Source of the DNA: an uncultured Candidatus Saccharibacteria bacterium
Lineage (GTDB): Bacteria > Patescibacteriota > Minisyncoccia > Phycocordibacterales > PALSA-1337
Length of the DNA: 64,000 nt
Assembly: GCA_964358005.1 (NCBI GenBank)
Contig: CAYHNH010000003.1
Location: forward strand, 16,334-80,333
Reading direction: 5' to 3'
The first letter of the stretch is position 1. Every line of letters begins with the position of its first letter. Positions 1,368 through 50,608 of the stretch are shown here, piece by piece. A program made the position numbers and the translations under genes. Below the pieces are notes generated by a model that saw only the letters and a program-made list of their open reading frames with translations, did not search any database and was not told where the DNA came from.

Positions 1368-1369
1368 AT

Positions 1370-1852: not shown

Positions 1853-1855
1853 ATA

Positions 1856-3544: not shown

Positions 3545-4155
3545 ATAAAAAGATTGTTATATTTGATTTTGACGGAGTGATCGTTGACTCGTTCTCGATG
3601 TGTCTCAAGATAGTTGATTCACGAGAATATATTACTGAACCAGAATACAGGCGTAGGTTTGAAGGTAATGTCTTTGATGCTAAAAGAAAATTCAAAGATC
3701 CGAATACGACTATGGAAAGCTTCGATCAACATTACGCTCCAGAGGTGATGAAGTGCGAGCCCTTTAAGGGCATGGCTGATGCAATCAAAGCACTATCTGA
3801 GAAATATATACTAGTGATAGTTTCATCTACGGAGACTGTTTCGATTGATTCGTATCTGAAGTCTGTAAACCTGAGGGATTACTTCAAAGAAATTCTAGGT
3901 AGTGATGTAGATAGGAGCAAGGTAAAGAAGATTCAGAGAGTTTTGAAGGATTACAAAGCTGAACCTACCGACGCCATTTTCATCACTGATACGCTAGGGG
4001 ACATCAATGAAGGCGATCATTGCGGCGTTAAATCTATTGCGGTTACTTGGGGTTATAACAATAAGGAGGTTCTGGAAAAAGGTAAACCGTATGCCATTGT
4101 GAAGGAGCCAGCAGAATTGACGCAGAAGGTTACGGAGTTCCTATCAAAGAAATAG
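3541..4155 (+). CDS. HAD-superfamily hydrolase
   Basis: N-terminal motif I VIFDFDGVIVDS; 204 aa; overlaps the carbamoyltransferase stop by 4 nt (ATGA coupling). Confidence 0.65.
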   Translation: MNKKIVIFDFDGVIVDSFSMCLKIVDSREYITEPEYRRRFEGNVFDAKRKFKDPNTTMESFDQHYAPEVMKCEPFKGMADAIKALSEKYILVIVSSTETVSIDSYLKSVNLRDYFKEILGSDVDRSKVKKIQRVLKDYKAEPTDAIFITDTLGDINEGDHCGVKSIAVTWGYNNKEVLEKGKPYAIVKEPAELTQKVTEFLSKK

Positions 4156-4256
4156 GCTCTTGTATGGCTCTAAACTGATGCCATTCCTGCATTTCCTTGA
4201 TTAATTGATTCCATTCAGCTCTAATTAGGGTCACATAATTTTAGCAACAAATAAAT

Positions 4257-4871
4257 ATGAATAAATACATTATAGGCGTATGTCTCGTTATTCTGGTTAT
4301 TGTCGGGGCGGTATACTTCTCGAAGAATAAAGATTTAAATGGTACCGGTAGCGACCCGCTTCTTGCGGGGGATGCAGTTTTAAAGGCGATCAAGGACGCA
4401 GATTACCAAAAACTTGAAAGTCTGACGAGCTCTGACGGGTTATCTTGGGATCACTACATAAACCTTGATCTTAAGGATTCGAAATATCATATTCCCAAAG
4501 ACCGGATTTCCTCAACTTTCACAAACTCTGAAAAACGTCTTTTTGGGTATGCGGATGGAAGCGGTGCCCCGATCGTGATAACGGGCAACGAGTACATGAA
4601 AAAATATGTGTATCGGCACGACTACCTGGACGCAACAAACACAAAGGTGACCATTATTAAGCCTTCTGTGGACATCACTAATGAGCAGGACAAATTTGTC
4701 ATGAGCCAAATGAATCTGTATGGTGGCATCGGCTCGAGAATCGTCACTGCGCACCACTATGCTGATCCCGCGGCCAACGATTTTGACTACAGCACCATTT
4801 ACCTCGTCTTTGATACCGAGAATGGGGAATATAAGCTAAGAGGGATTGCTCGCTACTACTGGACTATCTAG
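4257..4871 (+). CDS. hypothetical N-terminally membrane-anchored/secreted protein
   Basis: N-terminal hydrophobic helix IIGVCLVILVIVGAVYF followed by a soluble domain; no recognised family. Confidence 0.4.
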   Translation: MNKYIIGVCLVILVIVGAVYFSKNKDLNGTGSDPLLAGDAVLKAIKDADYQKLESLTSSDGLSWDHYINLDLKDSKYHIPKDRISSTFTNSEKRLFGYADGSGAPIVITGNEYMKKYVYRHDYLDATNTKVTIIKPSVDITNEQDKFVMSQMNLYGGIGSRIVTAHHYADPAANDFDYSTIYLVFDTENGEYKLRGIARYYWTI

Positions 4872-4882
4872 TACCCGCTGAC

Positions 4883-5257
4883 TCACTTCTTATAAACAGG
4901 CCCATGGCCTCTGATCTTCTTGAGCAGTTCGGCAGCTTCGTCATAGAGGGACATGCCTTGGAACATCTTACTGCCAGAGGAACTACATATCTCTAATAGC
5001 TCATCTATAGCTTCTCCGGTAAAGCCGGCCTCATGGAAGACGCTAGCCTTGCGCATAGTCCACCTGATACCGGCGACGGCGGCGGCTCGTGACCCTTCAG
5101 ATTCATATATAGCATCGATCTCAGACTGCGCCTGGAGCAGCCAACGCTCATAGACCTCCCTAGAATACGGGTCGGATTCGAGCTTGGGCAGTGCCTCGAC
5201 GGCTTCTTGGTCGGTTACCTGCCAATGCTCCGGGGCTGGCCCTGATTCGCCTTTCAT
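4883..5257 (-). CDS. hypothetical protein
   Basis: Track ORF starts at TTG 5296; first ATG gives MKGESGP... at 5257. No recognised domain. Confidence 0.3.
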   Translation of the reverse strand: MKGESGPAPEHWQVTDQEAVEALPKLESDPYSREVYERWLLQAQSEIDAIYESEGSRAAAVAGIRWTMRKASVFHEAGFTGEAIDELLEICSSSGSKMFQGMSLYDEAAELLKKIRGHGPVYKK

Positions 5258-22667: not shown

Positions 22668-23186
22668 ATGTTCTCCGACCCTGGAGCAAATATCGCTAAA
22701 TTAGGCGTCGCTGACGGCATGAAAGTTGCCGACCTCGGTGCCGGGTCGGGCTTCTATTCTATAGAGTCAGCCAAGCGCGTAGGCGCTAGTGGCCGCATCT
22801 ACGCCATAGATGTCCAGAAGAACCTCCTGGAGAGGCTGCGTTCGGTGGCTCAAGCCCAAAGCCTCAATAACGTCGAGGTCATATGGGCCAACGCCGAGAA
22901 GATAGGCGGCACCAAGCTCAAGGATGCCTTAGTGGACAGAGCCATAGTCTCCAACATCCTCTTTCAGGTCGCCAAAATGGATGATTTTGCTCTGGAGGTC
23001 AAGCGGATCACGAAGTCCGGAGGCAAGCTCCTTATCATCGAATGGAATGAGACTACGCCGCTCGCCCCCAAGACCCAGGTGCCCCAGATAAAGGTCCAGA
23101 CGTTGTTCGAGAAGAGCGGCTTCAAGCTGGAGGAGACCTTCCCGGCGGGTGCTAGTCACTATGGCATGATATTTACGCGCATATGA
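22668..23186 (+). CDS. class I SAM-dependent methyltransferase
   Basis: VADLGAGSGFYS motif I, IYAIDV motif II; 172 aa. Confidence 0.6.
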   Translation: MFSDPGANIAKLGVADGMKVADLGAGSGFYSIESAKRVGASGRIYAIDVQKNLLERLRSVAQAQSLNNVEVIWANAEKIGGTKLKDALVDRAIVSNILFQVAKMDDFALEVKRITKSGGKLLIIEWNETTPLAPKTQVPQIKVQTLFEKSGFKLEETFPAGASHYGMIFTRI

Positions 23187-24484
23187 AAACCACTAAATTC
23201 CAGGTAATAACGCTCATAGTCTTCATCGTCTTCATCATCGCAGGCGTAACCATGTTCGCCACATATAAAGGCAGCCAATCAGAGCAGTCACTGCCACCAG
23301 TCACCATGTGGGGCACTTTTCCCAAGGATCAGTTCGATCAGTATGTTGTAAAAGTGAACAACGCTTTGCCCCAGCAATTCAACATCAGGTATGAGCAGGT
23401 GAGCGCACAGTCATTCTTGAACCGTTTCGTATCGGCGCTAGCTAAGGGCGCCGGTCCAGATGCCATACTCGTCGAGGCTGACATAATCCTGCCACTGCAG
23501 GACAAGCTCACGGCTATCCCATATGACCTCTACCCGCAGAGGGCCTTCATAGACCAGTTCATAGACGAGGCGCAGGTCTATCTCGGCAACGATGGTCTCA
23601 TCGGCATACCGTTCTCTGTAGATCCTATGGTCATGTATTGGAATAAAGACTCCTTCAACGCGGCCGGCATACCTCTGCCGCCGAAGTACTGGGATGAGCT
23701 CCGGGTCGTGAATAAAAAGCTCACGACGAAGGACGACAATGGCACTGTAACGCGGAGCGGCGCGGCTATGGGCGATTTTAGCAATGTCACAAATGCTCGC
23801 GAGCTCCTAGGCAGTCTCATACTGCAGTCGGGCAATGCGGTGACTGGGCCGAGCGAGCGTGGGGGATTGAAGAGCCTACTAAAGTCTACCGGAGAACGCA
23901 GTCCCGTGGCGGCTGTCACTTTCTTTACGCAATTTGTGGATCCCGGCAATGAGAATTATTCCTGGAACCATTCATGGCCAGACTCTAGGACGGCCTTCGT
24001 CTCGGGTAAGCTGGCCACATACTTCGGCATGGCCTCCGAGCTTTTTGCCCTGCGGAACAAGAATCCGAACCTGAATTTTGACGTGTCTCCCATACCGCAA
24101 TACAGGACCGGGGGAGTCGCGGCCACCTATGGCAAGATATATGGCTTCTCGATAGTGAAGCAATCGCAGGTGTCGAATGCCGCCTATCAGATGATATATA
24201 CCCTGACCGCCCCTCAATTCCTGTATGAGATATCCAATGGGATGTATCTGCCATCCGTAAGCCGGGCCATCATATCAGCCGGGTCGAAAGACCCATATGT
24301 CTCTAGGTTCAATGAAGCGGCTCTGATATCTAGGACCTGGAGGGACGCCGATTCGAGCGTCTCGTCGAGAATATTCGGGTCAATGGTGCAGACTATAACG
24401 ACAGGCCGCAAGTCTGTCGCGGAGGCACTAGATGAAGCATCGGAGGAATATGACGCGGCCCTCCTACAGGCAATCGGCGAATAA
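23183..24484 (+). CDS. extracellular solute-binding protein (ABC-transporter type), N-terminally membrane anchored
   Basis: N-terminal TM helix then about 400-aa periplasmic-binding-protein-like domain (WNKDSFNAAGIPLPPKYWDEL; sugar/oligopeptide SBP-like); overlaps upstream MT by 4 nt. Confidence 0.55.
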   Translation: MKTTKFQVITLIVFIVFIIAGVTMFATYKGSQSEQSLPPVTMWGTFPKDQFDQYVVKVNNALPQQFNIRYEQVSAQSFLNRFVSALAKGAGPDAILVEADIILPLQDKLTAIPYDLYPQRAFIDQFIDEAQVYLGNDGLIGIPFSVDPMVMYWNKDSFNAAGIPLPPKYWDELRVVNKKLTTKDDNGTVTRSGAAMGDFSNVTNARELLGSLILQSGNAVTGPSERGGLKSLLKSTGERSPVAAVTFFTQFVDPGNENYSWNHSWPDSRTAFVSGKLATYFGMASELFALRNKNPNLNFDVSPIPQYRTGGVAATYGKIYGFSIVKQSQVSNAAYQMIYTLTAPQFLYEISNGMYLPSVSRAIISAGSKDPYVSRFNEAALISRTWRDADSSVSSRIFGSMVQTITTGRKSVAEALDEASEEYDAALLQAIGE

Positions 24485-24487
24485 CAT

Positions 24488-25030
24488 ATGAAGGAAATAT
24501 CAAAAAAAGGCGTGATACTGGCGATACTAGGTGTGAGCTTTTTCAGCTTCGCTGGCATAGCAAGCGCGGTCAATCCCGCTGATGTGCCTCCGGTCAATCT
24601 CACCAAGACGCCTGACGCTGGCGGGCCATTTGGCGCTTTCAAGATACTGCAGTGCGATGGGCCGGCTAAATTGAACGATGTCTCAACGCACAGGGTCAAG
24701 AATACCGATGGCAATTGGCAGGTTGAAACTGTGAACGGAGTTCCGTGGACGCCAGATCCGAAATTCGTAGCCTGCGATTTCCGCGGCTTGATGATCCAGA
24801 TCCAGTTCCTCATCAATGCGGCAGTGGTCATCGGCGTCCTGGCGGCGCTCATCGGCTTTGCCTACGCCGGCTTCCTTTATATCACCGGCACCCAGGCCAA
24901 CCTCAAGAAGGCCCACACTATATTCCCGAAGATATTCTGGGGCTTTGTGATCATGCTCATGGCCTGGTTCATCGTTTATCAGATATTAGCTTGGCTAACG
25001 CCTGCGGCGTCGGCGTACTTGCCGCAATAA
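24488..25030 (+). CDS. paralog A of secreted two-TM-hairpin (VirB2/TrbC-pilin-like topology) family; about 85-aa Cys-containing ectodomain
   Basis: Signal peptide MKEISKKGVILAILGVSFFSFAGIASA; C-terminal TM1 (LINAAVVIGVLAALIGFAYAGFLYI), basic loop (KKAHTIFPK), TM2 (IFWGFVIMLMAWFIVYQILAWL). Confidence 0.5.
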   Translation: MKEISKKGVILAILGVSFFSFAGIASAVNPADVPPVNLTKTPDAGGPFGAFKILQCDGPAKLNDVSTHRVKNTDGNWQVETVNGVPWTPDPKFVACDFRGLMIQIQFLINAAVVIGVLAALIGFAYAGFLYITGTQANLKKAHTIFPKIFWGFVIMLMAWFIVYQILAWLTPAASAYLPQ

Positions 25031-25034
25031 CAAC

Positions 25035-25892
25035 ATGCATCCATTTAGAACAAAGGTCATCGTGGCACTGTCGCTCTCTCTGGCGTGTCTCTTTGCGGTT
25101 CTGCCGATATCTACAGCCAGCGCCCAGAGCTTTACGACGAATATCTCGGAGGTCACAGAGACCGGCTTCGACGTGAATTGGACGTTCGTGACTGGTGCAC
25201 AAAGGTACATGGTTTTTTGGAAAGCTAGATCCGAGGCGAGCTTCAGGCAGTCTAGCCCGATCTTAGCTTCGGCGGCGGCTACTCGCTATGCGCTCAGAAA
25301 CCTAACCCCAAGCACTCAATACGAGGTCTTTGTGGGAGTATCGATGGATGGCGCTTCATATGATGGGCAGACTGCGGTAAGCGCTCGCACACTGGGAGGG
25401 ACGGTTCCACCAACCCCTACGCCTGCTCCATCTCCCACCCCTGCGCCAACCCCTGCACCTACTCCAGCCCCCACACCGACGCCTGTCCCAGTACCAACAC
25501 TTGCACCAACACTTGCGCCGACACGTGCCCCAGGCACCGGTACTGGCAGTACTGGCACGCAAAACATGTTCTATATCCAGAACCCCCTCAATCCACAATT
25601 CAACAGCGTCGGGGGTCTAGTCAGCGGCTTTCTGGAGATATTCTCTTATCTGGTGATACTTTTCGCGGTTCTGATGCTCATCTGGGTAGGTCTGCAGTTC
25701 GTCCTGGCCCAGGGAAATGCCGAAAGGATGAAGGAGCTCAAGAAATGGCTACTGTGGATAGTGGTCGGCATAGCTCTCGTAATAGGTGCTAGAATTGTCG
25801 TTGCAGTAGTGATTAGTACCCTGGATGCGACTGGCGTAGTAAATCAAGGAGTCATCAGGGGCGCTCGTAATGCATTAGATGGCAGACCATAA
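25035..25892 (+). CDS. paralog B: signal peptide, fibronectin type III domain, Pro/Thr linker, C-terminal two-TM hairpin
   Basis: FN3 pattern (FDVNWTFVTGAQRYMVFWK...LTPSTQYEVFVGV); PTPTPAPSPTPAPTPAPTPAPTPTPVPVPT linker; TM1-AQGNAERMKELKK-TM2 hairpin. Confidence 0.55.
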   Translation: MHPFRTKVIVALSLSLACLFAVLPISTASAQSFTTNISEVTETGFDVNWTFVTGAQRYMVFWKARSEASFRQSSPILASAAATRYALRNLTPSTQYEVFVGVSMDGASYDGQTAVSARTLGGTVPPTPTPAPSPTPAPTPAPTPAPTPTPVPVPTLAPTLAPTRAPGTGTGSTGTQNMFYIQNPLNPQFNSVGGLVSGFLEIFSYLVILFAVLMLIWVGLQFVLAQGNAERMKELKKWLLWIVVGIALVIGARIVVAVVISTLDATGVVNQGVIRGARNALDGRP

Positions 25893-25896
25893 TAAG

Positions 25897-26271
25897 ATGA
25901 TAAAAAACATGTTGAATTCCAGAATCAAGATGGCGACTATGACAGGAGCGACGATACTGTTTCCATTGACCGCCTTCGCCGCTGACAAAAAGCTCTCCGA
26001 CATAATAAATACAATAGTTTCCTATCTCGGCGATATTCTCTTCCTGCTCATGGCCCTGGCTGTGGTCATATTCGTCTGGTATGTGATCAAGTATTTCATC
26101 ATGCCGAATGAGAGCCGCAAGGAGGCCGGTCAATATGTCATGTACAGCCTGATCGGATTCTTCGTTATACTCTCTATGTGGGGGATAGTTAGTGTGATCT
26201 CGAATACACTGGACATAGGAGGAGCTGGCCCCCAGACTTGGGATAATTTTAGGAACATATTTCCCCGTTAA
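25897..26271 (+). CDS. paralog C of two-TM-hairpin family
   Basis: Signal-like MATMTGATILFPLTAFAADKK; TM1 ILFLLMALAVVIFVWYVIKYFI, loop MPNESRKEAGQY, TM2 VMYSLIGFFVILSMWGIVSVI. Start ambiguous between ATG 25879, 25897 and 25909. Confidence 0.5.
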   Translation: MIKNMLNSRIKMATMTGATILFPLTAFAADKKLSDIINTIVSYLGDILFLLMALAVVIFVWYVIKYFIMPNESRKEAGQYVMYSLIGFFVILSMWGIVSVISNTLDIGGAGPQTWDNFRNIFPR

Positions 26272-26286
26272 TATATAAGAAAATCC

Positions 26287-26739
26287 ATGAATAGCGCAGC
26301 AGTCACAAATGCCGGCACTCTGATAAGCAAGTTCGATTACCTTTTCCGTTCGGCTGTATGGCTCATGGTGTCCCTGGCGATCGTTTTCATCGTATGGCAC
26401 GCATTGCAGTTCATAAGGGAAGCGGGAGGCGACGAGAGGAAGAAGCACCAGAACGCTATATTGTGGGGCATCGTCGGTCTTGCGGTTATCCTCTCGATCT
26501 GGGGACTTGTCGCCATATTGAGCAATACATTTAATGTCGGCAATGTCGAAGGCCAGAATGAAGCGGCGAGGAATATAAACAAGCTCATCATACCCAGGAG
26601 CTCGTTCCAGAGTGGTGGTGGATCTAATCCTACGCCTGCCCCCGGACCCGGCACTGGCACCGGATCCAACCCACCTGGACCTGGTACGGGCACTGGATCT
26701 AACCCCCCTGGCCCGGGTACTGGCACCGGATCGAATTGA
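26287..26739 (+). CDS. paralog D of two-TM-hairpin family, C-terminal GPGTGTGSNPP x3 repeat tail
   Basis: TM1 AVWLMVSLAIVFIVWHALQFI, loop REAGGDERKKHQNA, TM2 ILWGIVGLAVILSIWGLVAIL; no obvious signal peptide. Confidence 0.5.
   Translation: MNSAAVTNAGTLISKFDYLFRSAVWLMVSLAIVFIVWHALQFIREAGGDERKKHQNAILWGIVGLAVILSIWGLVAILSNTFNVGNVEGQNEAARNINKLIIPRSSFQSGGGSNPTPAPGPGTGTGSNPPGPGTGTGSNPPGPGTGTGSN
26641..26736 (+). repeat. three tandem 33-nt units encoding the identical peptide GPGTGTGSNPP with synonymous nucleotide differences
   Basis: Units at 26641-26673, 26674-26706 and 26707-26736; the peptide is conserved while third codon positions vary. Confidence 0.6.
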
Positions 26740-26840
26740 TAGTAATCCACAGCTAGGCTTAAATAAAACCGTAATACTGCTATAATTGCAGACAGCTAGA
26801 AATTGTCGTTTAGCATCCTTATTAAAATCATTAAATTAGT

Positions 26841-27215
26841 ATGAAAAAGCTTATAACAACACTCGCTTTCACCCTCGCGCCAGCCATAGCTTTCGCCCAG
26901 GTAAACGCCCCTGTCAGGGATTTCAATAGCCTGACCCAGAAGACCATAGGTATCGGCAACACCATCATCGGCGTGCTCATAGCTATCGCGGTCATATTCA
27001 TCGTCTATAACGTTCTGATGTTCATCGTCAAGGCCGGAACGGACGACAGGAAGACATATCAGAAGGCCATCCTTTGGGGCATCGTCGGTCTTGCTGTTAT
27101 CCTCTCGATCTGGGGTCTCGTCGCCATCCTTACGAACACCTTCGGCACAGCCGGCAACCCTGTAGGTCCTGCAACTCTCTACCCAGTCAATCCAGTACCG
27201 GTACCAGCTCAATAA
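26841..27215 (+). CDS. paralog E of two-TM-hairpin family
   Basis: Signal peptide MKKLITTLAFTLAPAIAFAQ; TM1-KAGTDDRKTYQKA-ILWGIVGLAVILSIWGLVAIL; shares a near-identical 60-nt stretch with paralog D (26461-26520 against 27067-27126). Confidence 0.55.
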   Translation: MKKLITTLAFTLAPAIAFAQVNAPVRDFNSLTQKTIGIGNTIIGVLIAIAVIFIVYNVLMFIVKAGTDDRKTYQKAILWGIVGLAVILSIWGLVAILTNTFGTAGNPVGPATLYPVNPVPVPAQ

Positions 27216-27218
27216 ATA

Positions 27219-27527
27219 ATGCGAGGATTGCTCCCATCACTGGTATCTGAAGCGCATGCCCAAGCCGCGACAAGCAACGTCGCGGCGTTTGGCAATGTCC
27301 TGAATCCGATAATCACTAATATCGTAAACCCCATCGTCAAGCTGGCCTTCGCGGTCGCAGTGGTGGTGTTCGTGTATGGGGTGATACAAATGATCTTGAA
27401 TAAGACAGACGCTGAATCTCACAAGAAAGCCAGGTGGAGCATGCTGGGAGGGCTCATCGGTATGGTCATAATGGTTTGCGCCTGGGGAATAGTGTATCTG
27501 GTGGCAAACACGGTAAAGGGTTTTTAG
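27219..27527 (+). CDS. paralog F of two-TM-hairpin family
   Basis: Signal-like MRGLLPSLVSEAHAQA; TM1 LAFAVAVVVFVYGVIQMIL, loop NKTDAESHKKARW, TM2 SMLGGLIGMVIMVCAWGIVYLV. Confidence 0.5.
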   Translation: MRGLLPSLVSEAHAQAATSNVAAFGNVLNPIITNIVNPIVKLAFAVAVVVFVYGVIQMILNKTDAESHKKARWSMLGGLIGMVIMVCAWGIVYLVANTVKGF

Positions 27528-27614: not shown

Positions 27615-28250
27615 TCAATCCTCGGGGTTCGACAGGGCGAGCTGCCACCAGTTCCTGGGGAGTGCCCCCATGAAGACGATATAACCGAGGCGTGAACGGG
27701 TGATTGAGTCACCTGCCACGATCCGGAAACCCGCCTTATGGGTATGGGCGACCTTGAACTTCTGTTCGTTGTCGGGGTTATAACTGACCGTCCGCTTCGG
27801 GAAGGTGTGGACGGCCTGGCCATCCACACAATACTGGAAGGGGACATTGTCCACGATGCCGACCTCGATCGAGTAACCTGCCGGCACGTCGATCTCCTCG
27901 ATCGTGCGACCTGTGCTGACCGTGAAGCTACCATACTTCAGGATCGGCGGCCGAGATGGCATGGCCGGAGCAGCATACGCCTGCGGCGTTTGCTGCTGAT
28001 AGGCCATGGCCGGCGGGGGTTGGAACTGTCCGCCCCCCTGCAGTGCCCGCTGGGCCTGCTGCGCCGCGGCCGCTTGCCGCTTCGCCGCCGCCTCTTCGCG
28101 CCGGGCCGCCTTGGCTTCCTCGACCTCCGCGTAGTTCACGCGAAAGCCATTGATGAGGACTCCCAGGAGGACCAGTGCCACGGCCCCGATCAGGAGCCAT
28201 TTCAACGTTTTCGGGTTCTGAGTTTTGTTGTTTTTTTTGTCTGCGCTCAT
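27615..28250 (-). CDS. hypothetical N-terminally membrane-anchored protein with Ala/Gln-rich linker
   Basis: TM helix WLLIGAVALVLLGVLI, then AKAARREEAAAKRQAAAAQQAQRA low-complexity stretch and a 110-aa C-terminal domain; G+C-rich. Its ATG overlaps the upstream gene stop (TAATG). Confidence 0.45.
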   Translation of the reverse strand: MSADKKNNKTQNPKTLKWLLIGAVALVLLGVLINGFRVNYAEVEEAKAARREEAAAKRQAAAAQQAQRALQGGGQFQPPPAMAYQQQTPQAYAAPAMPSRPPILKYGSFTVSTGRTIEEIDVPAGYSIEVGIVDNVPFQYCVDGQAVHTFPKRTVSYNPDNEQKFKVAHTHKAGFRIVAGDSITRSRLGYIVFMGALPRNWWQLALSNPED

Positions 28251-29326
28251 TAGTTGCCTTTCTTGTTGTTGGATTTTTTGCCCAGCGTCGATGTGTCGGT
28301 CAACGCTATGTTACTGATGCCGCCCCTGCCACCCTCGATGCGGGTGACGCGCTGATCGCGCATGAGGCGGGCCTTCTGGAACTTTTCCCACATCTGTTCC
28401 CAGGTGCCGATCCTGGAGGCCTTCATATACATCTCGACGATCTCCAGATTCGTCTTGGTCTCGGCCACTTCGGCCAGACGGTCGAACACTTCGCGAGCTT
28501 GCGCTCTCATAGCCTCCAGGATGTCATCCGGCAGATCGAATTTGGCTTGTATCTGCCTGACTTCGATGCCAAACGTCTCACCCTCGAAGATGTGCTCAAG
28601 TTCAGCCTCCATCGGGCCTGCCAGGAATTGCTTCGGGTCGGTGACTACTTGATGACTGCTCAGTCCTACCGCCCGCGCCTTGGTGTCCTGGACCACGATG
28701 CCGTCGAGCAGGGGCTTGATGCCATCCCACTTTCCGGCCTGGACGAAGTCGACCGCATCGCTGAGGTCAACCTCGAACCGTCCATCGATCTCTCCATCCA
28801 AGGGAACCTGATCCACCCCGCAGATTATCTGCATGTGAAATTCGAGATTCTTGTCCGTGATGTCGATCGGGTCGGTATCGATGTGGAATGGCCAGATTGG
28901 TAAGACCAAGGTTCTTCCTCCTACTGTGATACCGCCGTTCTCTTGATCAATGTAGGCATCCCAGCATTTGAGGAGGCCGGCAGTCCGTGGATCGGATGGG
29001 TGAACCTTTTCACCTTTCCACCAGATCAGGATACCTAGCACCAATGGCGGAAGCCCGAAGGGATTTCCGAGAAGGGACAGGGTGATTCCTGACCCGACGA
29101 GTAATATGCAGACCATGAGGATGGAGAGCGTAATGCCGTTCGCAAATGGCTTCAGGCTCGGCGCAGACGTCTCGTGACGCTTTTTGCGCTTCGCCTTCTG
29201 ACCATCGTCTGTCACTTGCGGCTTCTCGGCTTTCGCCAGGGAAGCACGCGAGTTGATCATGAGCATGATTATGGCAACGACAGCCATTATCAGTCCGATC
29301 CCTATCAGTATGTTACCGATGTTCAT
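28250..29326 (-). CDS. SPFH/band-7 (stomatin/flotillin-like) domain membrane protein
   Basis: Two N-terminal TM helices then SPFH-like core (GITVGGRTLVLPIWPF...EAMRAQAREVFDRLAEVAETKTNLEIVEMYMKA). Start uncertain between ATG 29326 and upstream TTG 29389. Confidence 0.45.
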   Translation of the reverse strand: MNIGNILIGIGLIMAVVAIIMLMINSRASLAKAEKPQVTDDGQKAKRKKRHETSAPSLKPFANGITLSILMVCILLVGSGITLSLLGNPFGLPPLVLGILIWWKGEKVHPSDPRTAGLLKCWDAYIDQENGGITVGGRTLVLPIWPFHIDTDPIDITDKNLEFHMQIICGVDQVPLDGEIDGRFEVDLSDAVDFVQAGKWDGIKPLLDGIVVQDTKARAVGLSSHQVVTDPKQFLAGPMEAELEHIFEGETFGIEVRQIQAKFDLPDDILEAMRAQAREVFDRLAEVAETKTNLEIVEMYMKASRIGTWEQMWEKFQKARLMRDQRVTRIEGGRGGISNIALTDTSTLGKKSNNKKGN

Positions 29327-29604
29327 TTGGACGCTAGTTTCGAGCCGTCCCGGAATGGGAGGCTCATTGGTTGAGGATTGAGTTTTCAACGTGCTTTCGT
29401 ACGTTGGTATTGACTGGTGTTAATAGTAGCACTTTTGGGTATGTTTGTCAAGTAATAAAATGGCTCAAAATATGGGTTATTGGGCGTAGGCAGCTCAAAT
29501 TTGGGACAAAAAAGCGCCCCCGATGCAAGCATCAGGGGCGTTGTGTTCTTCGCTATGGATCCCTGCGGACCCTGGAGGAAGAACGTCACGAGTAGAGACC
29601 TTCG

Positions 29605-31347
29605 TCAGTAGCGGAAATGACCGCTGTAGACGACGGGATCGACTCGGGTGTGGCCTCGGAAGGCCGGGGGGAGCGGCAGCGGGTTCACGACCGGCACCAC
29701 ATACTGCATCCGTTCAACCGGTGCGCAGTAGGCGGGATTGTAGCTTTGGCCGTAATCGGCGTAGGCCACCTGCCCGTAGTTGGTCTGCTGCTGGGGCGCT
29801 CGGACGAGCGTCCCATTCTGCTCCGGCGGCGAGCGGTAAAGCTCTTCGCCGGGGTAGGGGTGCGGAACGATGGCACTTACAGGCTTCGCCCCCAGCTGCG
29901 GCCCTTGCGGAGCGGCCGACTCGGGTTGAACCCGCGGTCCTTCATCCGGCATCTCGCGACGCGAGCGACCGGACTGGACTGGGGCGGGCTGGAAGCCCTG
30001 ACCCTGGTGCGGCTGACCCTGGACGACCTGGGGCGCCGCGGGCTGCACGTAGATCACCTGCGGGGCAGGCGCTGCCGCTGCCGGTTGAGCCGGCTGCGAC
30101 GGAACGGGCGCCCAGGGTTGGTGGATCGCATGCATGCTGTAGGATTGCCAGGCCATGAAGGCCAGGCAGCCCAGGATCAGCACGATGACGAACACCAGCG
30201 CCCAGAGCCACGGGGACCCGGACTTCGACGACTTGGTCGTGCGCTCCGAGGTGGTCGTTGCCGACCTCCGCGAACCGCCGCGACGCTTGTCATCGTCGTC
30301 ATCCGAACTGCCACCACCGGAGCCACCACCACCGAACTTCGCGAGAAGCTCGGAGTGGCGCTTGTTCGCATCGGAATCCGAGCGAGCAAAACCGTCGTTG
30401 ACGGTGCCGGCGAGCTGCGTGACCTGGTTCTTCAGCGCTTCCAGCTCCGTGCGGAGCTTGGTGGCCTCATCCTTGGTCGCCGCGTTGCCGATCTTCGTGC
30501 GAAGCTCGGCCATCTCGCGCTCGATCGCGATGATACGGGCGTCGTTGTTGCCAGCAGGCTGGTTGCCGCCGCCGGTGTTGTCACCAGGCTTCGGCTTCTC
30601 AACGTGTTGCAACGCCAGGACGTGCTCGGGGAGGAGTTCGAACACACAGGTGCCCGGCTCGCTCTTGTTGCCGTCCTTGTCGAACGACACGACCGAGACC
30701 ACGAGCTCGTCGCCCGCGGGGTTCAGCTTCGGCTTGTTGCCGAGCAGGACCTCGAGATGACCGTGCGTCACCCCGTCCTTGTCGATCGCCTTGTCGGCCG
30801 CGTTGGCCGTCATGGGCCCGAAGCTGTCACCGGCCTTGTTCTTGGCCGAAATGACGTGCTTCACGACGGACGGTTCTTCCGTCGTGATCCGGAGGAAGAG
30901 CCCACCACGGGTCTCTTCCTTCCGCTTGTTCGTGCGCTTGACGTCCGGCTTCTTCACGGCTTTCTTGCCGGCGCTCGCGCCACTGCCGCCACCACTTGTG
31001 CCGGACGCATTGGCCATGACTTCCGTCACGGTCATCGCGTCGAGGGTGGTTTGGCCAGTGGCCATTTCGGCGGCGGGCGTGCTGTTGGCGTCCGTCACCT
31101 TGATCTCGACATCGATCGGCTCTCCGACCACGATGTCCGTGATCGGGTTCTTGGTTTGGAGTTGGAGTTTGGTGATGTCGAACTGCAGCTTGTCCGACAC
31201 CATGTCACTGCGAGCGATCGTTCCAAGCCAGAGCAGCGTGCCCTTGGCGTTGGTGACCGTAGCGGTGACGTGGGTGGTATCTGCAGAGAGGCTTTCCAAG
31301 TAGACTTGGGCACCCTCGATTTTGGTAACATTGGGCTTCGTTGGCAT
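29605..31347 (-). CDS. large bitopic membrane protein: about 390-aa cytoplasmic region with coiled coil, single TM, about 180-aa Pro/Gln-rich C-terminal tail
   Basis: Coiled-coil segment IAIEREMAELRTKIGNAATKDEATKLRTELEALKNQVTQLAG; TM WLWALVFVIVLILGCLAFMAW; tail PQVIYVQPAAPQVVQGQPHQGQGFQPAPVQ. Most G+C-rich gene in the window; the antisense ORF is judged a shadow. Confidence 0.5.
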   Translation of the reverse strand: MPTKPNVTKIEGAQVYLESLSADTTHVTATVTNAKGTLLWLGTIARSDMVSDKLQFDITKLQLQTKNPITDIVVGEPIDVEIKVTDANSTPAAEMATGQTTLDAMTVTEVMANASGTSGGGSGASAGKKAVKKPDVKRTNKRKEETRGGLFLRITTEEPSVVKHVISAKNKAGDSFGPMTANAADKAIDKDGVTHGHLEVLLGNKPKLNPAGDELVVSVVSFDKDGNKSEPGTCVFELLPEHVLALQHVEKPKPGDNTGGGNQPAGNNDARIIAIEREMAELRTKIGNAATKDEATKLRTELEALKNQVTQLAGTVNDGFARSDSDANKRHSELLAKFGGGGSGGGSSDDDDDKRRGGSRRSATTTSERTTKSSKSGSPWLWALVFVIVLILGCLAFMAWQSYSMHAIHQPWAPVPSQPAQPAAAAPAPQVIYVQPAAPQVVQGQPHQGQGFQPAPVQSGRSRREMPDEGPRVQPESAAPQGPQLGAKPVSAIVPHPYPGEELYRSPPEQNGTLVRAPQQQTNYGQVAYADYGQSYNPAYCAPVERMQYVVPVVNPLPLPPAFRGHTRVDPVVYSGHFRY

Positions 31348-31613
31348 GGTTCTGACTTCCGGTAATGACCGCGCTTTTTGAAGGCGCAGGTCGGGTTTAG
31401 TTGTTCATTTCAACCCACCTGCGCTTGCGCGAAAGGGGCCGAACTGATGCTTTCACAGACAAAAGTATTCGGCTGTCAACAGGATGCTTGATCCTGGGGC
31501 TACACAGCCCTGAACTATGAATTCTTGTACAATGATACTACATATAGAGGTAAAAGTCAAGGGCAGATGAAATATAACTATAATATCGAATAAAGGCTCA
31601 AGTTTGCTGTTTT

Positions 31614-31665
31614 CTAGAAAAAAAGAAGGCCCGCAGTCATAAATGACGGCTGGGCCCTCCTCGTA
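31614..31665 (-). terminator. candidate rho-independent terminator (minus strand) after the 31697-33181 gene
   Basis: On the minus strand GGGCCCAGCCGTCA-TTTA-TGACTGCGGGCC imperfect hairpin followed by TTCTTTTTTTC. Confidence 0.35.
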
Positions 31666-31696
31666 GAGGATTGAAACTAACTCTTTTTGATAAACA

Positions 31697-33181
31697 TTAT
31701 CTGAGGTTACGATCGCACCAGTTCCTGGCAGGAACCGGATGGAACGCTGACTGGAGCAGGCCGAGCGCGCCTGTCGTCGGATCCCTTCCGACCAGTTCTT
31801 CCCAGGGGATGTAGGTGGGGTGGCGGTCGATCGTGTTACTGCCATTCAGGAACATTTCACCTTTCTTGAAGTAGTACCACAGACCGTCGTCACCATCGCC
31901 TTCCTGACCGCACTGCTCGAACGAGGGAAGCAGTTTCCGTCCGAGCTTCTTCAGCTCGAATATACGGATCATGCGCACGGGATACTCGAGGATGCCGGCA
32001 TAGCGATAGGTGGCCTTCGAACCAGTCACGCACAGCTTGAGCTCCTCGTCAGAGAAGATCTGCACGTTACCGGTCTTCTTGGCCCGGACCACCGTGACGC
32101 CTGGCATCTTCTTGTCGTCGGGGATGTGCTTCTGAAGCAGATTCCGACAATGCCTGGCCGCCTTGTGCGCATTCCGGCTGTCCGTCGTCGTGGCGCTCAG
32201 CAGGATGATCCGCTCCTCGCCATCGAGAAGCGCCCGAACGAAGATGGGCGCCTCCTTGCTCTGCCTGTCGACCTCGGACCAGAAGTCCGCTTGGTCGATA
32301 TGCATCGCCACGAAGGCATACTCGAGCAGGTCTGCGATGTCCTGTTCCGTGGTCGCCACATCCTTGGCGCTGGTCCGCGCCATCGCTTCGACTCCGAAGG
32401 CCAGTTCCGTGACGTAAGTTCGGTCTGCGCCTTCTTTGTCGGGAACGAATGTCGCTTTGCGTTGCATGCTGCCATGCATGCGCTGGAACAGGCTGCTGCG
32501 GATGCGCGGTTCCATCGGGCCGTTGGCCTCCTCCCAATCGCCGAGCCACTTGCGGAAGTAGTCGACGAGGTTCTTCTCTCCGGGGGGACGCTCCAGCTTG
32601 ACCGAAGCCATGATCTGGCTCTCGCGAGTGATGATCGCAATGATCAGCGGCTCAATGAAGCTAAAGATCCTCTTGGCGGCGTCGACATTTCGACGATTGT
32701 CCACCTTGATGAGCTCAGCTAGCATCGTCGACCGACAACCACTCTCGGTGTCGCACCGCAGGACTTCTGCCAGAAGCCGCCGCAGCGCCGCCACGTCCTC
32801 CTTCTTAAGGTAGTTCGCGACGAGCCGAGTCGAACACCATCCGGGCATGCGGTCGCCACCTTCCTTCAGGTGCTCGTTGAAGCGACACTTGTCGCCAGTT
32901 CCGAACGGCAGGATGCCGTCCGCGTCGAACTGTTCCTCTGTGCCGGTCATGTCGCCGAAGACGATGTTCCGGTCCCGCAAGGCTTTGCGGATACCGGGGA
33001 ACACGTCTTCGCCGAACAGTGCCGCCACTATCGCTCCAGCGACTTCGTCAAGGTGTGGCGATGGATGCATCGCCAGTTTCTTGACTGGGATCACTGGTAC
33101 CGGGTATGCGAACCCGGTGAACGTCGGGTTTATGAACCCTGCTGACGCTATCATGGGAGTCCTTTGGTTGATGAGGCCCAT
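31697..33181 (-). CDS. hypothetical protein (494 aa), G+C-rich
   Basis: Long ORF with protein-like composition; possible metal-binding His-rich N-terminal motif (MHPSPHLDEV); no family recognised. The plus-strand overlapping ORFs are shadows. Confidence 0.45.
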   Translation of the reverse strand: MGLINQRTPMIASAGFINPTFTGFAYPVPVIPVKKLAMHPSPHLDEVAGAIVAALFGEDVFPGIRKALRDRNIVFGDMTGTEEQFDADGILPFGTGDKCRFNEHLKEGGDRMPGWCSTRLVANYLKKEDVAALRRLLAEVLRCDTESGCRSTMLAELIKVDNRRNVDAAKRIFSFIEPLIIAIITRESQIMASVKLERPPGEKNLVDYFRKWLGDWEEANGPMEPRIRSSLFQRMHGSMQRKATFVPDKEGADRTYVTELAFGVEAMARTSAKDVATTEQDIADLLEYAFVAMHIDQADFWSEVDRQSKEAPIFVRALLDGEERIILLSATTTDSRNAHKAARHCRNLLQKHIPDDKKMPGVTVVRAKKTGNVQIFSDEELKLCVTGSKATYRYAGILEYPVRMIRIFELKKLGRKLLPSFEQCGQEGDGDDGLWYYFKKGEMFLNGSNTIDRHPTYIPWEELVGRDPTTGALGLLQSAFHPVPARNWCDRNLR

Positions 33182-33311
33182 GCCTCGTTTTTGGTTTTGG
33201 GAAATAGCGCTGTTCTCTCAGATATGTTGTAAAGAACGGAGAAACCAGCTGAGGCGCATTATATCACATAATTAAGCTATAAGTCAATATACTCTGTAAA
33301 TGTCAATTTTG

Positions 33312-33393
33312 TGGGCACGGGGAGACTCGAACTCCCAAGTCTTGCGACACATGGTCCTAAGCCATGCGCGTATACCAATTCCGCCACGTGCCC
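33312..33393 (-). tRNA. tRNA-Leu (anticodon TAG), long variable arm
   Basis: Acceptor GGGCACG/CGTGCCC, anticodon stem-loop CATGG-CTTAGGA-CCATG, long variable arm, T-loop TTCGAGT; 82 nt. Confidence 0.85.
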
Positions 33394-33428
33394 ATGCCTC
33401 GATAATAATACACGAAACCTTTGCCTTT

Positions 33429-33502
33429 GTGCGCCCAGTAGGGATCGAACCTACGACCTTGTCCTTAAGAGGGACCTGCTCTACCAGCTGAGCTATGGGC
33501 GC
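33429..33502 (-). tRNA. tRNA-Lys (anticodon CTT)
   Basis: Acceptor GCGCCCA/TGGGCGC, D-arm GCTC-AGCTGGTA-GAGC, anticodon loop CTCTTAA (one 27-43 mismatch), T-loop TTCGATC; 74 nt. Confidence 0.8.
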
Positions 33503-46759: not shown

Positions 46760-47365
46760 ATGCCAACTGAATTAACAGCAATTTTTGGAGTTCTATCTGG
46801 AATCGCAGTCCTAATCGGTGGCATCCCATATCTCCGAGACATTCACCTAAATAGAGCACAGCCTCATATATTGAGCTGGTTGGGCTGGACCTTTATCACT
46901 GCTCTCGGTGCCAGCGCGATGCAGGCTGAAGGCAGCACTTGGGTGGTCGGAATACTGTGGGCGAATGCGCTCAATTCCTTCCTGATAGCGGCGTACTCGG
47001 CTATTAAGAAAACTGGTGTCTGGTCGACTGGTATCTATGATTATATTTTTTTCGGGCTAGGCGTCATGGGACTAGTCCTGTGGCAGGTTTTGGATATGCC
47101 TGTCCTGGCGATTATCTGTGCCATTGCAGCTGACTTGTCGTTTGGCATTCCGACGATCATAAAATCATACAAGAATCCGGGATCAGAAACATTCTTTGTG
47201 TGGCTAATGTCCTCTGTTTCTGGTTTTCTTAGCTTGCTTGCTATCCAGCAATTCGTTTTCCATGAGGTGGCATATCCACTATATTTGTTTATTTATGACA
47301 CTATAGTCATGCTACTAGTATTGAAAATAATTCACAGACCAGGCCGTGGTCTCGTTCAGAAATAA
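46760..47365 (+). CDS. polytopic membrane protein (6 predicted helices), low-G+C
   Basis: 201 aa, highly hydrophobic (IFGVLSGIAVLIGGIPYL; VVGILWANALNSFLIAAYSAI; ...); no family recognised. Confidence 0.45.
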   Translation: MPTELTAIFGVLSGIAVLIGGIPYLRDIHLNRAQPHILSWLGWTFITALGASAMQAEGSTWVVGILWANALNSFLIAAYSAIKKTGVWSTGIYDYIFFGLGVMGLVLWQVLDMPVLAIICAIAADLSFGIPTIIKSYKNPGSETFFVWLMSSVSGFLSLLAIQQFVFHEVAYPLYLFIYDTIVMLLVLKIIHRPGRGLVQK

Positions 47366-47369
47366 TTTC

Positions 47370-48683
47370 ATGCCTGACATCGACCTATACAACAAATCTC
47401 CCGAATCATACGATGATCTCCAACACATGCGCCCGGACTATGTCGGTGCGCAAAAGGCGTTTATAGATCTGGCGGTACAACATTTGAACGGCAAACAGAA
47501 TATCTCTGTCGCTGATTTCTGCTGCGGCACAGGTCAAGACACCAAAACGCTCGCCGGACATGTGAAGATTGATAAGGCCACGCTCATAGACATAAACAAG
47601 GACTTTTTGAGAATTGCTAAGGAGAAGGACATTGGAGTTCACAATATCGTGACGATTTGCTCTGACATTCTGGAGGCTGACGTGTCAGCGAATAATGATC
47701 TAGTCATCTCGATGTTCGCCTATCACCATGTTCCAAATAATAGGAAGGCTGATTATCTAAAGAAGGCGAAGGAGGCTCTTAAGCCTGGCGGCCTGCTTCT
47801 TCTAGGTGAGATATTCATGCAGAGTAAGGCGGATACGTTGAAGTACTATGAGGATTTGATCGCTTCGATTCCCGGATCGAAGGATAATCCTGCTTTGGTC
47901 AGTTTTCTAAGGCAGACTGCGCAAAGCGATGATTTTGAATTTAAAGTCTCCAAGGAGTATGCCTACAATCAACTAAAAGAGGCAGGTTTTTCTCTGGTTG
48001 AGTCGAAAAAGATATGGCCCCTCGATGGCAGTTTGTCGGCTGATGATGGGACATTTGTGGAGGTTTGGAAATCAAATATTACGAAATTGTTTCTAACATC
48101 TGCAGGTTTTACTAACTCTGAAACTACAGATATTTTGATGGAAGAGATCCCAAAGCAGGCCGAATTGTGTAAGGTTTTGATGATTAGCTGCACCCAGGAT
48201 GAGACTGAGGAATCCTATGTGAATGAGTCCAAGAATGAGCTTCGATCACTCGGTTTCAAGGACATAAAGGTTCTTGATCTGCACAAACCGATGAAGCCTG
48301 ATCCTGCCGACATTGTGTATGTCTGTGGCGGCAATACTTTTGCGATCCTGCAGAAAATGAAAGAAACGGGTGTCGATAAATTTATAATTGATTCAGTGAA
48401 TAAGGGTGCCTTGTACATAGGCGTTTCCGCGGGAAGCATTATGGCTGGCAAGACCATCGAGATTGCCGGATGGGGCTCGACCGGAGACAAGAATGAGGTC
48501 GGCCTCAAGGATCTCACTGGCTTCGGTTTTACTGACGTAGCAGTTTTTCCTCATTATCAGACTTCACAAAAAGATGAGGTCGCGGAATTCAAGAAGAGGG
48601 CCACTTATCCGGTTATTGAAATTACCGACAATCAGATGGTGTTTGTGAGGGATAATAAAGCAAAAAAGATAGGGAGATTTTAA
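47370..48683 (+). CDS. fusion protein: class I SAM-dependent methyltransferase (N-terminal) plus peptidase S51/dipeptidase-E-like domain (C-terminal)
   Basis: N-terminal VADFCCGTGQDTKTLAGH (motif I) ...LLLGEIFMQS; C-terminal IVYVCGGNTFAILQKMKETG...IGVSAGSIMAG (GGNTF plus nucleophile-elbow serine typical of the S51 family). Start at ATG 47370 (track start is GTG 47346). Confidence 0.5.
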   Translation: MPDIDLYNKSPESYDDLQHMRPDYVGAQKAFIDLAVQHLNGKQNISVADFCCGTGQDTKTLAGHVKIDKATLIDINKDFLRIAKEKDIGVHNIVTICSDILEADVSANNDLVISMFAYHHVPNNRKADYLKKAKEALKPGGLLLLGEIFMQSKADTLKYYEDLIASIPGSKDNPALVSFLRQTAQSDDFEFKVSKEYAYNQLKEAGFSLVESKKIWPLDGSLSADDGTFVEVWKSNITKLFLTSAGFTNSETTDILMEEIPKQAELCKVLMISCTQDETEESYVNESKNELRSLGFKDIKVLDLHKPMKPDPADIVYVCGGNTFAILQKMKETGVDKFIIDSVNKGALYIGVSAGSIMAGKTIEIAGWGSTGDKNEVGLKDLTGFGFTDVAVFPHYQTSQKDEVAEFKKRATYPVIEITDNQMVFVRDNKAKKIGRF

Positions 48684-48720
48684 AGTGGACATAAATCCGA
48701 TTTGGAGTAATATTTAAGCC

Positions 48721-49251
48721 ATGTCCGTCACCCTCATCTTCGAAGCTCACGGCACGACATTCGACAACGAAGCTCATCTCTCGTCGGGCTGGAATGACGT
48801 GGCTCTGTCGCCATTGGGCGAGCGGCAATCGCGAGAGATGGGCGAGCGCTACAAGGACGACCATTTCGACGCCATATTCTGCTCGGACCTACAGCGCGCC
48901 TACAAGAGCGCCGAGATCGGATTTGGGGACAAATGGCCGATCATCCGCGACGCCCGATTACGAGAATGCAACTACGGCGACTTGACCCAGAGCCCGAGCG
49001 AAATAGTCGACAGGGAAAAGCCGCAGAGGATACATACGCCATTCCCGAACGGGGAGAGCTATATGCAGACCAATGTCCGTATGAAGTCATTCCTGGATGA
49101 TTTGAAGCGCGATTACAATGGCAAGCGCGTCATGGTCATCGGTCATCGCGCGACCCAGTATGGCATCCAGAACATCGTCGAAGGCACGCCGTACGAGAAG
49201 CTCACCACCACGCATTTCAAATGGCAGCCAGGGTGGGGGTATGAGGTGTAA
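48721..49251 (+). CDS. histidine phosphatase (phosphoglycerate-mutase-like) family protein
   Basis: N-terminal LIFEAHGTTFDNEA (RHG-type catalytic His motif variant) ...GWNDVALSPLGERQSREMGERY; 176 aa. Confidence 0.55.
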   Translation: MSVTLIFEAHGTTFDNEAHLSSGWNDVALSPLGERQSREMGERYKDDHFDAIFCSDLQRAYKSAEIGFGDKWPIIRDARLRECNYGDLTQSPSEIVDREKPQRIHTPFPNGESYMQTNVRMKSFLDDLKRDYNGKRVMVIGHRATQYGIQNIVEGTPYEKLTTTHFKWQPGWGYEV

Positions 49252-49263
49252 AGCATAATTTTC

Positions 49264-49950
49264 ATGGAAAATATAAAAGAAGACGGAACAATTAATAAAG
49301 AAAGGAAAGTGCCTTGTTCAGAATGTGCATCCAAAACTTATCACAAGGTCTTAAAATCGATTAATTATCTTGAATCTGGGGACTGGGGAATTACATGGGG
49401 TAATTATGAAATAATTATATGTCAGGGATGTAGATATATTTCCTTTAGAAAAGTTTTAGGGACTGATGATGTAATTGGACAAGATGAGGAGGGAAATTTC
49501 ATATACGAGGAGGAAGAGGAGTTGTTCCCTCCAAGATTGAGTGGAAGGAAAGAGCTTGAGGATAATAGGTTTTTGCCCTTGGATGTCGGAAGAGTATATC
49601 GTGAGACCTATCGTGCTATTAATGGCGAACAACCGATTCTCGCCGGAATGGGAATCAGGGCGTTGGTTGAAGCTGTATGTGTTGAAGAAAAAATAAAGGG
49701 TAGAAACTTGGAGAAAAGGATTGATAACCTAGTTGAAGCTGATTTACTTACCAAGAAAGGCGCTGAAATTCTTCAGCAAATTAGGCTTTATGGTAATGAT
49801 GCGGCTCACGAAGCAAAAGCGGCAAAGATTGAGGATCTGGGGGTCCTAATGGATATAGCCGAAAACCTTCTACACAATACATACCTACTTAAGATAGGGG
49901 TAGCAAAGCTAGAAAAAGTAAAAAGTAAGCCTAAAGAGGCTAAGAAATAG
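49264..49950 (+). CDS. DUF4145-domain protein with N-terminal Cys4 zinc-ribbon-like region
   Basis: CSEC...CQGC N-terminal pairs; C-terminal DUF4145 signature (KRIDNLVEADLLTKKGAEILQQIRLYGNDAAHEAKAAKIEDLGVLMDIAENLL). Confidence 0.5.
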   Translation: MENIKEDGTINKERKVPCSECASKTYHKVLKSINYLESGDWGITWGNYEIIICQGCRYISFRKVLGTDDVIGQDEEGNFIYEEEEELFPPRLSGRKELEDNRFLPLDVGRVYRETYRAINGEQPILAGMGIRALVEAVCVEEKIKGRNLEKRIDNLVEADLLTKKGAEILQQIRLYGNDAAHEAKAAKIEDLGVLMDIAENLLHNTYLLKIGVAKLEKVKSKPKEAKK

Positions 49951-49999
49951 AACCCTGGTTTGCCTGGTATTGACTTTAAAATTAGGCTACAATTAGTCT

Positions 50000-50602: not shown

Positions 50603-50608
50603 TATGTT

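Follow-up and report, generated by a model that had tools for sequence, protein, structure and literature searches.

Positions 24488-27527 of the 64,000-nt stretch of DNA analysed here (referred to as the window) hold an array of six co-oriented plus-strand open reading frames (ORFs), labelled A to F. Their products all end in a two-helix hairpin and are related to the VirB2-like pilins of type IV secretion systems (T4SSs). The array genes are tightly packed, with gaps of -14 to 15 nt and a sole exception of 101 nt between D and E. Directly upstream, the gene of a solute-binding protein (SBP) stops 3 nt before the start of A (TAA CAT ATG). A scan for promoters and terminators revealed no plus-strand terminator-like site inside the array, and across the window neither site type exceeded the shuffled expectation by more than 2 standard deviations. 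Based on the tight packing and the lack of an internal plus-strand terminator-like site, the SBP gene, the methyltransferase gene in front of it and all genes through F are likely to form a single operon.

All six proteins show two Kyte-Doolittle peaks above 1.6 at their C-terminal ends. In all of them, two hydrophobic segments of ~19-25 residues each are joined by a Lys/Arg-rich loop of 10-15 residues. Hydrophobic leaders that end in an AxA motif are present in A (ASA↓V), B (ASA↓Q), C (AFA↓A) and E (AFA↓Q), where the arrows mark putative cleavage sites. The leader of F comprises 14 residues, ends in AHA and is kept in F orthologues. For D, no leader was found by hydropathy and inspection of N-terminal motifs. 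An earlier note on this DNA, made from the sequence alone, had described six plus-strand paralogues with a common C-terminal hairpin, most of them with a signal peptide. The ORFs are exactly as given there, hydropathy and the family matches reported below agree with the hairpin, the quoted loops are present, and "most" is a fair description of the leaders.

The short leader is a general property of F-type proteins. In all species examined it measures 7-14 residues, ends in AHA, HAA or AAS (window 27219-27260; loci L003 12018, L004 12372 and L005 12193 of relatives) and has neither a basic n-region nor a normal hydrophobic core.

Outside the hairpin the six proteins differ, and the modules listed in the earlier note (a Cys-containing ectodomain in A, an FN3 domain with a Pro/Thr-rich linker in B and a repeat tail in D) were all found. 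A consists of a leader (residues 1-27), an ectodomain of ~70 aa with two invariant cysteines (CDGP...C[DN]F) and the hairpin helices (residues 98-133 and 136-170). Its AlphaFold2 (AF2) model, with a predicted local distance difference test (pLDDT) score of 78.7 overall and ~90 in the hairpin, displays a leader helix, a small beta-rich ectodomain and a long helical hairpin. B is composed of a leader (residues 1-30), the FN3 domain (nt 25116-25409), the Pro/Thr-rich linker (nt 25410-25557), the hairpin and a conserved C-terminal stretch of ~30 aa. The linker is a tandem repeat at the DNA level, as is the GPGTGTGSNPP tail of D (26644-26732; 33 nt x 2.7). The FN3 match of B is sub-threshold in Pfam (E 5.7e-5; cut-off 25 bits). 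However, a search with residues 28-125 yielded 944 matching cluster representatives, the majority of them giant multi-repeat proteins, and all three of the matches to this region that were tested are strong PF00041 proteins. The FN3 domain is thereby confirmed by sequence homology despite its score.

D and E have a stretch of about 21-22 identical residues in common, ILWGIVGLAVILSIWGLVAIL, which the earlier note had also pointed out. It is encoded with 85% nucleotide identity (14 of 22 third positions) and lies inside 155 nt at 73% identity. This likeness suggests that the genes were duplicated fairly recently or underwent partial gene conversion. The two proteins are 51% identical, and the best matches of D are the position-4 (E-type) genes of relatives. 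Judged by these comparisons, D derives from a lineage-specific duplication of the E type and has lost the leader, which E and every E-type orthologue retain.

Family assignment of the hairpin proteins

The proteins were compared with the Pfam families PF18895 (T4SS_pilin, gathering threshold 26.6 bits) and PF04956 (TrbC/VirB2, 27.9 bits) and with the NCBIfam model NF045849 (cut-off 40 bits). B to F score above the PF18895 threshold in five of five cases (27.6-38.1 bits, E 3e-6 to 2e-9) and match one another in pairwise BLAST comparisons (E 4e-5 to 4e-27). A has no direct Pfam match. Among its 103 homologues, 47 carry PF18895 and one (P0066) is named "pilin" by PGAP, as is a homologue of B (P0110). 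An hhalign comparison of the A-family profile with that of B to F yielded a probability of 96.8% (E 2.6e-10) across the whole hairpin. By this profile comparison and through the homologues that carry PF18895, A is classed as a divergent member of the T4SS_pilin family. The VirB2/TrbC-like T4SS pilin reading put forward in the earlier note is thus supported for all six proteins, directly for B to F and through hhalign for A.

At least 22 orthologues of B were identified (156-229 aa). PF18895 is present in 21 of 22, PF04956 in 20 of 22 (precomputed matches, strength unstated) and both in 19 of 22. None of the B orthologues has an FN3 domain among the matches listed. A search with full-length B, limited to 8,000 candidates, was swamped by the Pro/Thr linker, and a search with the FN3 part returned only giant repeat proteins among the best 150 matches.

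The best NCBIfam match of B to F is NF045849, with all scores below the cut-off (B 28.1, C 25.8, D 25.8, E 32.9 and F 25.3 bits). This model comprises Mbov_0395 and MMCAP2_0565 from integrative and conjugative elements (ICEs) of Mollicutes, which are likewise T4SS-associated hairpins of monoderm organisms, and B to F match it across the whole hairpin. Unlike the array genes, the Mollicutes proteins are encoded by single genes on ICEs amid conjugation genes. VirB2, TrbC and TraA (PF04956; T, RP4 and F pilus) share with the array proteins the plan of two hydrophobic helices with a short basic loop, in A, B, C and E behind a putative cleavable leader, and the PF04956 matches of B and F are weak but consistent, with scores below the cut-off. 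In contrast to these systems with one major pilin, five to six distinct subunits are encoded here, large N-terminal domains are found on A and B, the organism is monoderm, and there are no adjacent virB genes.

Table 1 Genes of the pilin array and its direct neighbourhood in the window
Feature	Position	Strand	Characteristics
Class I S-adenosylmethionine (SAM) methyltransferase	22668-23186	+	172 aa; Pfam Methyltransf_31/11/25; stop overlaps SBP gene start
Solute-binding protein (SBP)	23183-24484	+	433 aa; SBP_bac_1 73.3 bits, SBP_bac_8 64.2 bits
Pilin A	24488-25030	+	180 aa; assigned to a divergent T4SS_pilin subfamily; first array gene in every locus
Pilin B	25035-25892	+	285 aa; PF18895 32.8, PF04956 22.1, fn3 23.7 bits
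Pilin C	25879-26271	+	130 aa from first ATG; start of gene callers (25909, 120 aa) more likely; PF18895 36.9 bits
Pilin D	26287-26739	+	150 aa; no leader; repeat tail; PF18895 35.1 bits
Pilin E	26841-27215	+	124 aa; Pro-rich C-terminal tail; PF18895 27.6 bits
Pilin F	27219-27527	+	102 aa; short atypical leader, no tail; PF18895 38.1, PF04956 18.3 bits
Convergent membrane protein (context only)	28250-29389	-	379 aa; three transmembrane (TM)-like segments; Band_7 18.5 bits, sub-cut-off

Conservation of the array in relatives and published counterparts

The nearest named relatives are metagenome-assembled genomes (MAGs) of Candidatus Taylorbacteria/Paceibacteria. A set of 54 species-representative loci that encode an A-type protein was compiled from Taylorbacteria-like Paceibacteria; 44 of them contain a complete array, and each pilin was assigned to its best-matching window paralogue. 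All 54 loci share a common frame of gyrA, methyltransferase, SBP, A, four to five more pilins, a variable block, rpmF, nusB, rnc and smc. The methyltransferase gene, conserved as the first of the cassette, is found directly 5' of the SBP gene in all of the loci that reach that far. Arrays of five genes occur in 24 of the species with a complete array and arrays of six in the other 20, with the orders ABCEF (24), ABCEEF (14), ABCDEF (5) and ABCEFE (1). The fixed order A-B-C-E(-E)-F was counted in 44 of 44 complete arrays, and F is the last gene in 43 of them. The E-type gene is duplicated in ~45% of species.

Positional orthologues are 43-59% identical, compared to about 20-34% between the window paralogues except for D and E. 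By gene, the values are 47-56% for C (position 3), 49-55% for E and 49-54% for F (last position). On these identities and positions, the paralogues represent five old, separately conserved orthologue groups. Hypervariability is limited to the N-terminal extension of B. ORFs at the B position range from 139 to 412 aa and exhibit mucin-like Ser/Thr/Gly/Pro linkers and, in one case, Cys-rich repeats; among the matches listed, an FN3 domain in B is seen in the window only. The description as a diversifying family in the earlier note therefore does not apply to the hairpin cores. Since the five groups occur in a fixed order in 44 of 44 arrays, a heteromeric structure with distinct roles is argued for, as opposed to free diversification or antigenic switching; the structure is probably heteromeric rather than variable.

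The earlier note had also called such a family notable, but arrays of this kind are already published. According to Wang et al. (2023), the T4SS cluster SEML1_0006-0019 of Ca. Southlakia epibionticum contains a series of predicted pilins that are essential for epibiotic growth; the authors also remarked that Gram-positive T4SSs are normally without a pilus (PMC10633639). Six sequence-divergent VirB2-like pilins of this species were highlighted in a 2025 review (PMC12857230). Quinonero-Coronel et al. (2025) searched 3,035 genomes with PF04956 and PF18895 and detected VirB2-like pilins in 1,948 VirB4-positive assemblies, near virB4 in 1,135 and away from it in 813 (~42%). They described 441 arrays with 2-11 pilin genes each, arranged in tandem or one gene apart, with a mean identity of 25% and a maximum of 54%, and speculated on paralogue variation by analogy with Bartonella and Anaplasma (PMC12102498).

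The array in the window resembles these patescibacterial arrays, including the "Sec-secreted array" of N. lyticus TM7x, in its PF18895 assignment, in its tandem arrangement (six genes here) and in the similar divergence of its paralogues. It is likewise located in a reduced genome of a monoderm patescibacterium, on the chromosome and not on a mobile element. Unlike in S. epibionticum, it lies outside a T4SS cluster, as do the pilins away from virB4 in the assemblies mentioned above. The published arrays were reported as most abundant in Microgenomatia and Saccharimonadia, whereas the present one stems from Taylorbacteria-like Paceibacteria.

The solute-binding protein upstream of pilin A

The SBP carries an N-terminal hydrophobic segment with an AFA↓T motif, which may be an uncleaved anchor or a cleavable signal, and has no lipobox. 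Its AF2 model (pLDDT 90.2) adopts a MalE/UgpB-like oligosaccharide-binding fold. The top Foldseek matches in the PDB are manno-, malto- and cyclodextrin-binding proteins (E 4e-24), and the nearest structures also include arabino-oligosaccharide binders. Fold and Pfam domains are thus those of the MalE/UgpB-type SBPs of monoderm ABC importers. In contrast to these, no ABC permease or ATPase was found among the window ORFs scanned (no BPD_transp match; the sole ABC_tran match lies in SMC), there is no lipobox, and the protein is coupled or fused to a pilin-family hairpin. A cognate permease or ATPase is likewise lacking from the syntenic loci of relatives.

The earlier note had listed an ABC SBP merely as the nearest upstream neighbour. 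The assignment as SBP was confirmed, but the gene is no bystander. It is located directly 5' of A in all 51 distinct loci with upstream DNA captured, usually with 0-12 nt from stop to start. Moreover, single-ORF fusions of SBP and A were found in at least four lineages, namely P0171 (659 aa), P0169 (586 aa), P0181 (599 aa) and an ORF of locus L046 (597 aa), which are only 52-70% identical to one another. In four of four fusions, the hydrophobic core of the A leader is replaced by a short non-hydrophobic linker and no TM segment is present at the junction; the predicted topology therefore stays coherent. The fusion P0171 scores above the PF18895 cut-off and occupies the same syntenic slot in two assemblies. 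Fusion coordinates are L046 8666-10459 and L060 3522-5501. Adjacency alone could be plain synteny, whereas the repeated fusions constitute Rosetta-stone evidence that suggests a physical partnership of SBP and A.

In-frame read-through from the SBP stop into A was considered as well and rejected: A follows the SBP gene in the same frame in the window, but this relation is not conserved in relatives. At the P0101 locus (ENA ERZ1426819), the SBP is split or truncated (359 + 71 aa) and the A-type pilin measures 298 aa with ~130 extra N-terminal residues. As far as its sequence tells, P0101 is another N-terminal module gain on a pilin of this cassette. No SBP-pilin link in the candidate phyla radiation (CPR) was found in the literature searched, and none is mentioned in PMC10633639, PMC12102498 and PMC12857230.

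Genomic surroundings and proposed function

To locate T4SS machinery, the 60 largest non-shadow ORFs of the window were scanned with Pfam and the Pfam-less ORFs were checked for Walker A motifs. Neither VirB4, VirD4 or VirB6 among the former nor a Walker A motif among the latter was found, and a further ~12 kb beyond the window ends (~8 kb upstream and 3.7 kb downstream) are also without VirB4, VirD4 and VirB6. This agrees with the earlier note, which had suggested that the array may use an apparatus encoded elsewhere. Two relatives with the same cassette (loci L015 and L028) support this suggestion: both are VirB4-positive in Table S1 of PMC12102498, and no VirB4 lies within 10 kb of their arrays.

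The window represents an ordinary patescibacterial chromosome with hisS, lepB, pth, S1, gyrA, ftsZ/ftsA, nusB, rnc, smc, clpB, alr, lexA, topA, dprA and serS. Its proteins also occur in a 0.1-µm-filtered Hainich groundwater assembly. An Rfam scan of the window yielded tRNAs only.

Downstream of the array, next to tRNA-Leu/tRNA-Lys (33311-33502), a minus-strand block of 58-65% GC (27615-33181) contains Pfam-less genes of 211, 379, 580, 130 and 494 aa, most with 1-3 TM segments and Ala/Gln/Pro-rich stretches. In relatives, this place is also taken by a block, which differs in gene number and content. Only two of its proteins recur there: the SPFH/Band-7-like protein of 379 aa, whose BLAST homologues follow the array on the minus strand in 15 loci, and the 494-aa protein in three loci. 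PHROGs and NCBIfam searches with the G+C-rich genes returned nothing meaningful and gave no evidence of prophage or island origin. The earlier note had spoken of a G+C-rich island; rather than foreign DNA, the block appears to be a variable slot for surface proteins in an otherwise conserved frame.

Two further regions deviate from the overall GC content of 52%. An A+T-rich islet (47000-52000; 36-44% GC) encodes a histidine phosphatase, a DUF4145 protein, a SocA/Panacea-domain antitoxin-like protein and two unknown small proteins, and may be a toxin-antitoxin or defence islet. The low-GC left end (1-5000; 39-44%) comprises genes for a TylF-type methyltransferase, a carbamoyltransferase and a HAD hydrolase. 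Beyond the window it extends upstream (L063 1352-9997) into a series of small unknown genes and genes for an AAA_25 protein and a large serine recombinase, and together these are probably an integrated element.

The best explanation of the array, with a probability of roughly 65%, is that the six genes encode chromosomal, vertically inherited VirB2-like pilins that form a pool assembled by a T4SS encoded elsewhere, with non-redundant subunit roles. The latter are argued from the fixed orthologue groups. Following the positive-inside rule and the example of F and T pilins, each pilin would enter the membrane through Sec/YidC and be processed by LepB, the housekeeping signal peptidase, which would give a membrane pool of pilins whose basic loops face the cytoplasm and whose N- and C-termini lie outside. 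A VirB4/VirB6-type T4SS would then build a surface filament or channel-proximal structure for host-cell contact, with the N-terminal domains and C-terminal tails on the outside of the assembled structure. C, E/D and F would act as short core subunits. B would be a display subunit with an exchangeable module at its exposed N-terminus, in the window an FN3 domain mounted on a Pro/Thr stalk. A would serve as an adaptor, its two-cysteine ectodomain holding the co-translated MalE-like SBP, non-covalently here and covalently in the fusion lineages.

Several observations weigh against this explanation. Of the two Pfam families with which the earlier note had proposed to check the proteins, only PF18895 was passed (by B to F). 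The PF04956 cut-off was reached by none of the six: B, F and C score 22.1, 18.3 and 12.3 bits, and the others have no match. D is without a leader and that of F is atypical. PDB profile searches with the A-family, B-F-family and B-family profiles retrieved no solved pilin, and fold searches led to generic helical hairpins only, including ATP synthase c subunits with the A model. A two-helix hairpin is, however, too simple for PDB or fold comparison to decide on a pilin relationship; profile matches to the GABA-B receptor and AmtB were discarded as chance TM matches. No T4SS ATPase or channel gene was found among the ORFs scanned in the ~32 kb upstream or the ~40 kb downstream of the array. According to Table S1 of PMC12102498, 13 of 36 RIFCS "Taylorbacteria" MAGs are VirB4-negative and 23 are positive, and the negative ones include five of five Taylorbacteria MAGs with 49-51% GC in their name (Fisher p = 0.003); the window has 51.8% GC. 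Because the MAGs are drafts, this association is a lead and not evidence. Finally, a pilus of this family has not been visualised in any patescibacterium (PMC10633639, PMC12102498, PMC12857230).

A more far-reaching proposal, to be regarded as tentative, is a composite surface organelle in which the MalE-like SBP, carried by A non-covalently in most species and covalently in the fusion lineages, would have been recruited to recognise host glycans at the head of a T4SS pilus, or of a filament or complex that needs no T4SS, with B as a second display subunit for swappable modules. In a more radical version, high-GC Taylorbacteria may keep the cassette without VirB4, with VirB2-family proteins working without a T4SS.

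The main rival, an SBP-centred membrane complex independent of any T4SS, is unlikely. Here, the hairpins would oligomerise in the membrane and tether the SBP for capture of host oligosaccharides or adhesion, with no extended pilus. The invariable position of the SBP gene immediately 5' of A, its fusion in four lineages and the lack of a lipobox, and of a permease or ATPase among the window ORFs scanned, fit such a complex. So do the distance of the array from any virB4, the many VirB4-negative related MAGs and the fusions, whose two ends would both be membrane-anchored should the N-terminal anchor of the SBP stay uncleaved. However, the family is homologous to pilin arrays inside T4SS clusters and essential together with them in Saccharibacteria, and two relatives with the same cassette have VirB4. 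In addition, the VirB4-negative draft MAGs may reflect incompleteness, and adjacency is inseparable from regional synteny, so that only the fusions argue for a physical link.

It is less probable still that the genes encode interchangeable major pilins, used singly or mixed, for antigenic or host-range variation. This idea, raised in PMC12102498 and echoed by the word "diversifying" in the earlier note, is in line with the low paralogue identity (22-34%), the hypervariable N-terminal extension of B between species and the frequent duplication of the E-type gene. In contrast, each paralogue has a positional orthologue in distant species, and the invariant order in the complete arrays marks distinct, conserved roles rather than turnover. 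Moreover, neither silent cassettes nor inverted repeats nor recombination sites were found in the array, the only repeats being those in coding sequence. Last and least probable by far are unrelated two-TM proteins (holins, bacteriocin immunity or ATP-synthase-c-like proteins) that mimic the pilin topology: beyond the fold matches of the A model to ATP synthase c subunits and generic hairpins they could draw on matches to Phage_holin_2 (E 0.16) and Colicin_im (E 0.013) that are far below the cut-offs, while PF18895 was passed five times, P0066 and P0110 bear PGAP "pilin" names, and the array lies among housekeeping genes without phage or bacteriocin context, a PHROGs scan having returned nothing relevant.

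Among these, the pool of VirB2-like pilins with non-redundant roles remains the preferred explanation. What looks new here is limited to lineage-specific features, namely the Paceibacteria cassette with its fixed order of five groups, the coupling and fusion of the SBP and the FN3-bearing pilin, all unmentioned in the three papers cited above; the tandem array itself is already published.

Patescibacteria make up a large fraction of uncultured bacteria and apparently live attached to other cells. That lifestyle depends on the T4SS together with its series of pilins in the only species open to genetics so far, and the present locus bears on the question of what such pilins build or bind. The ordered orthologue groups offer one handle on this question, and B offers another as a scaffold for hypervariable exposed modules. 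The SBP welded to A is a candidate ligand-recognition component and provides a Rosetta-stone pair for interaction and structural studies. If the high-GC Taylorbacteria subclade keeps the pilin cassette, it would constitute a natural test of T4SS independence.

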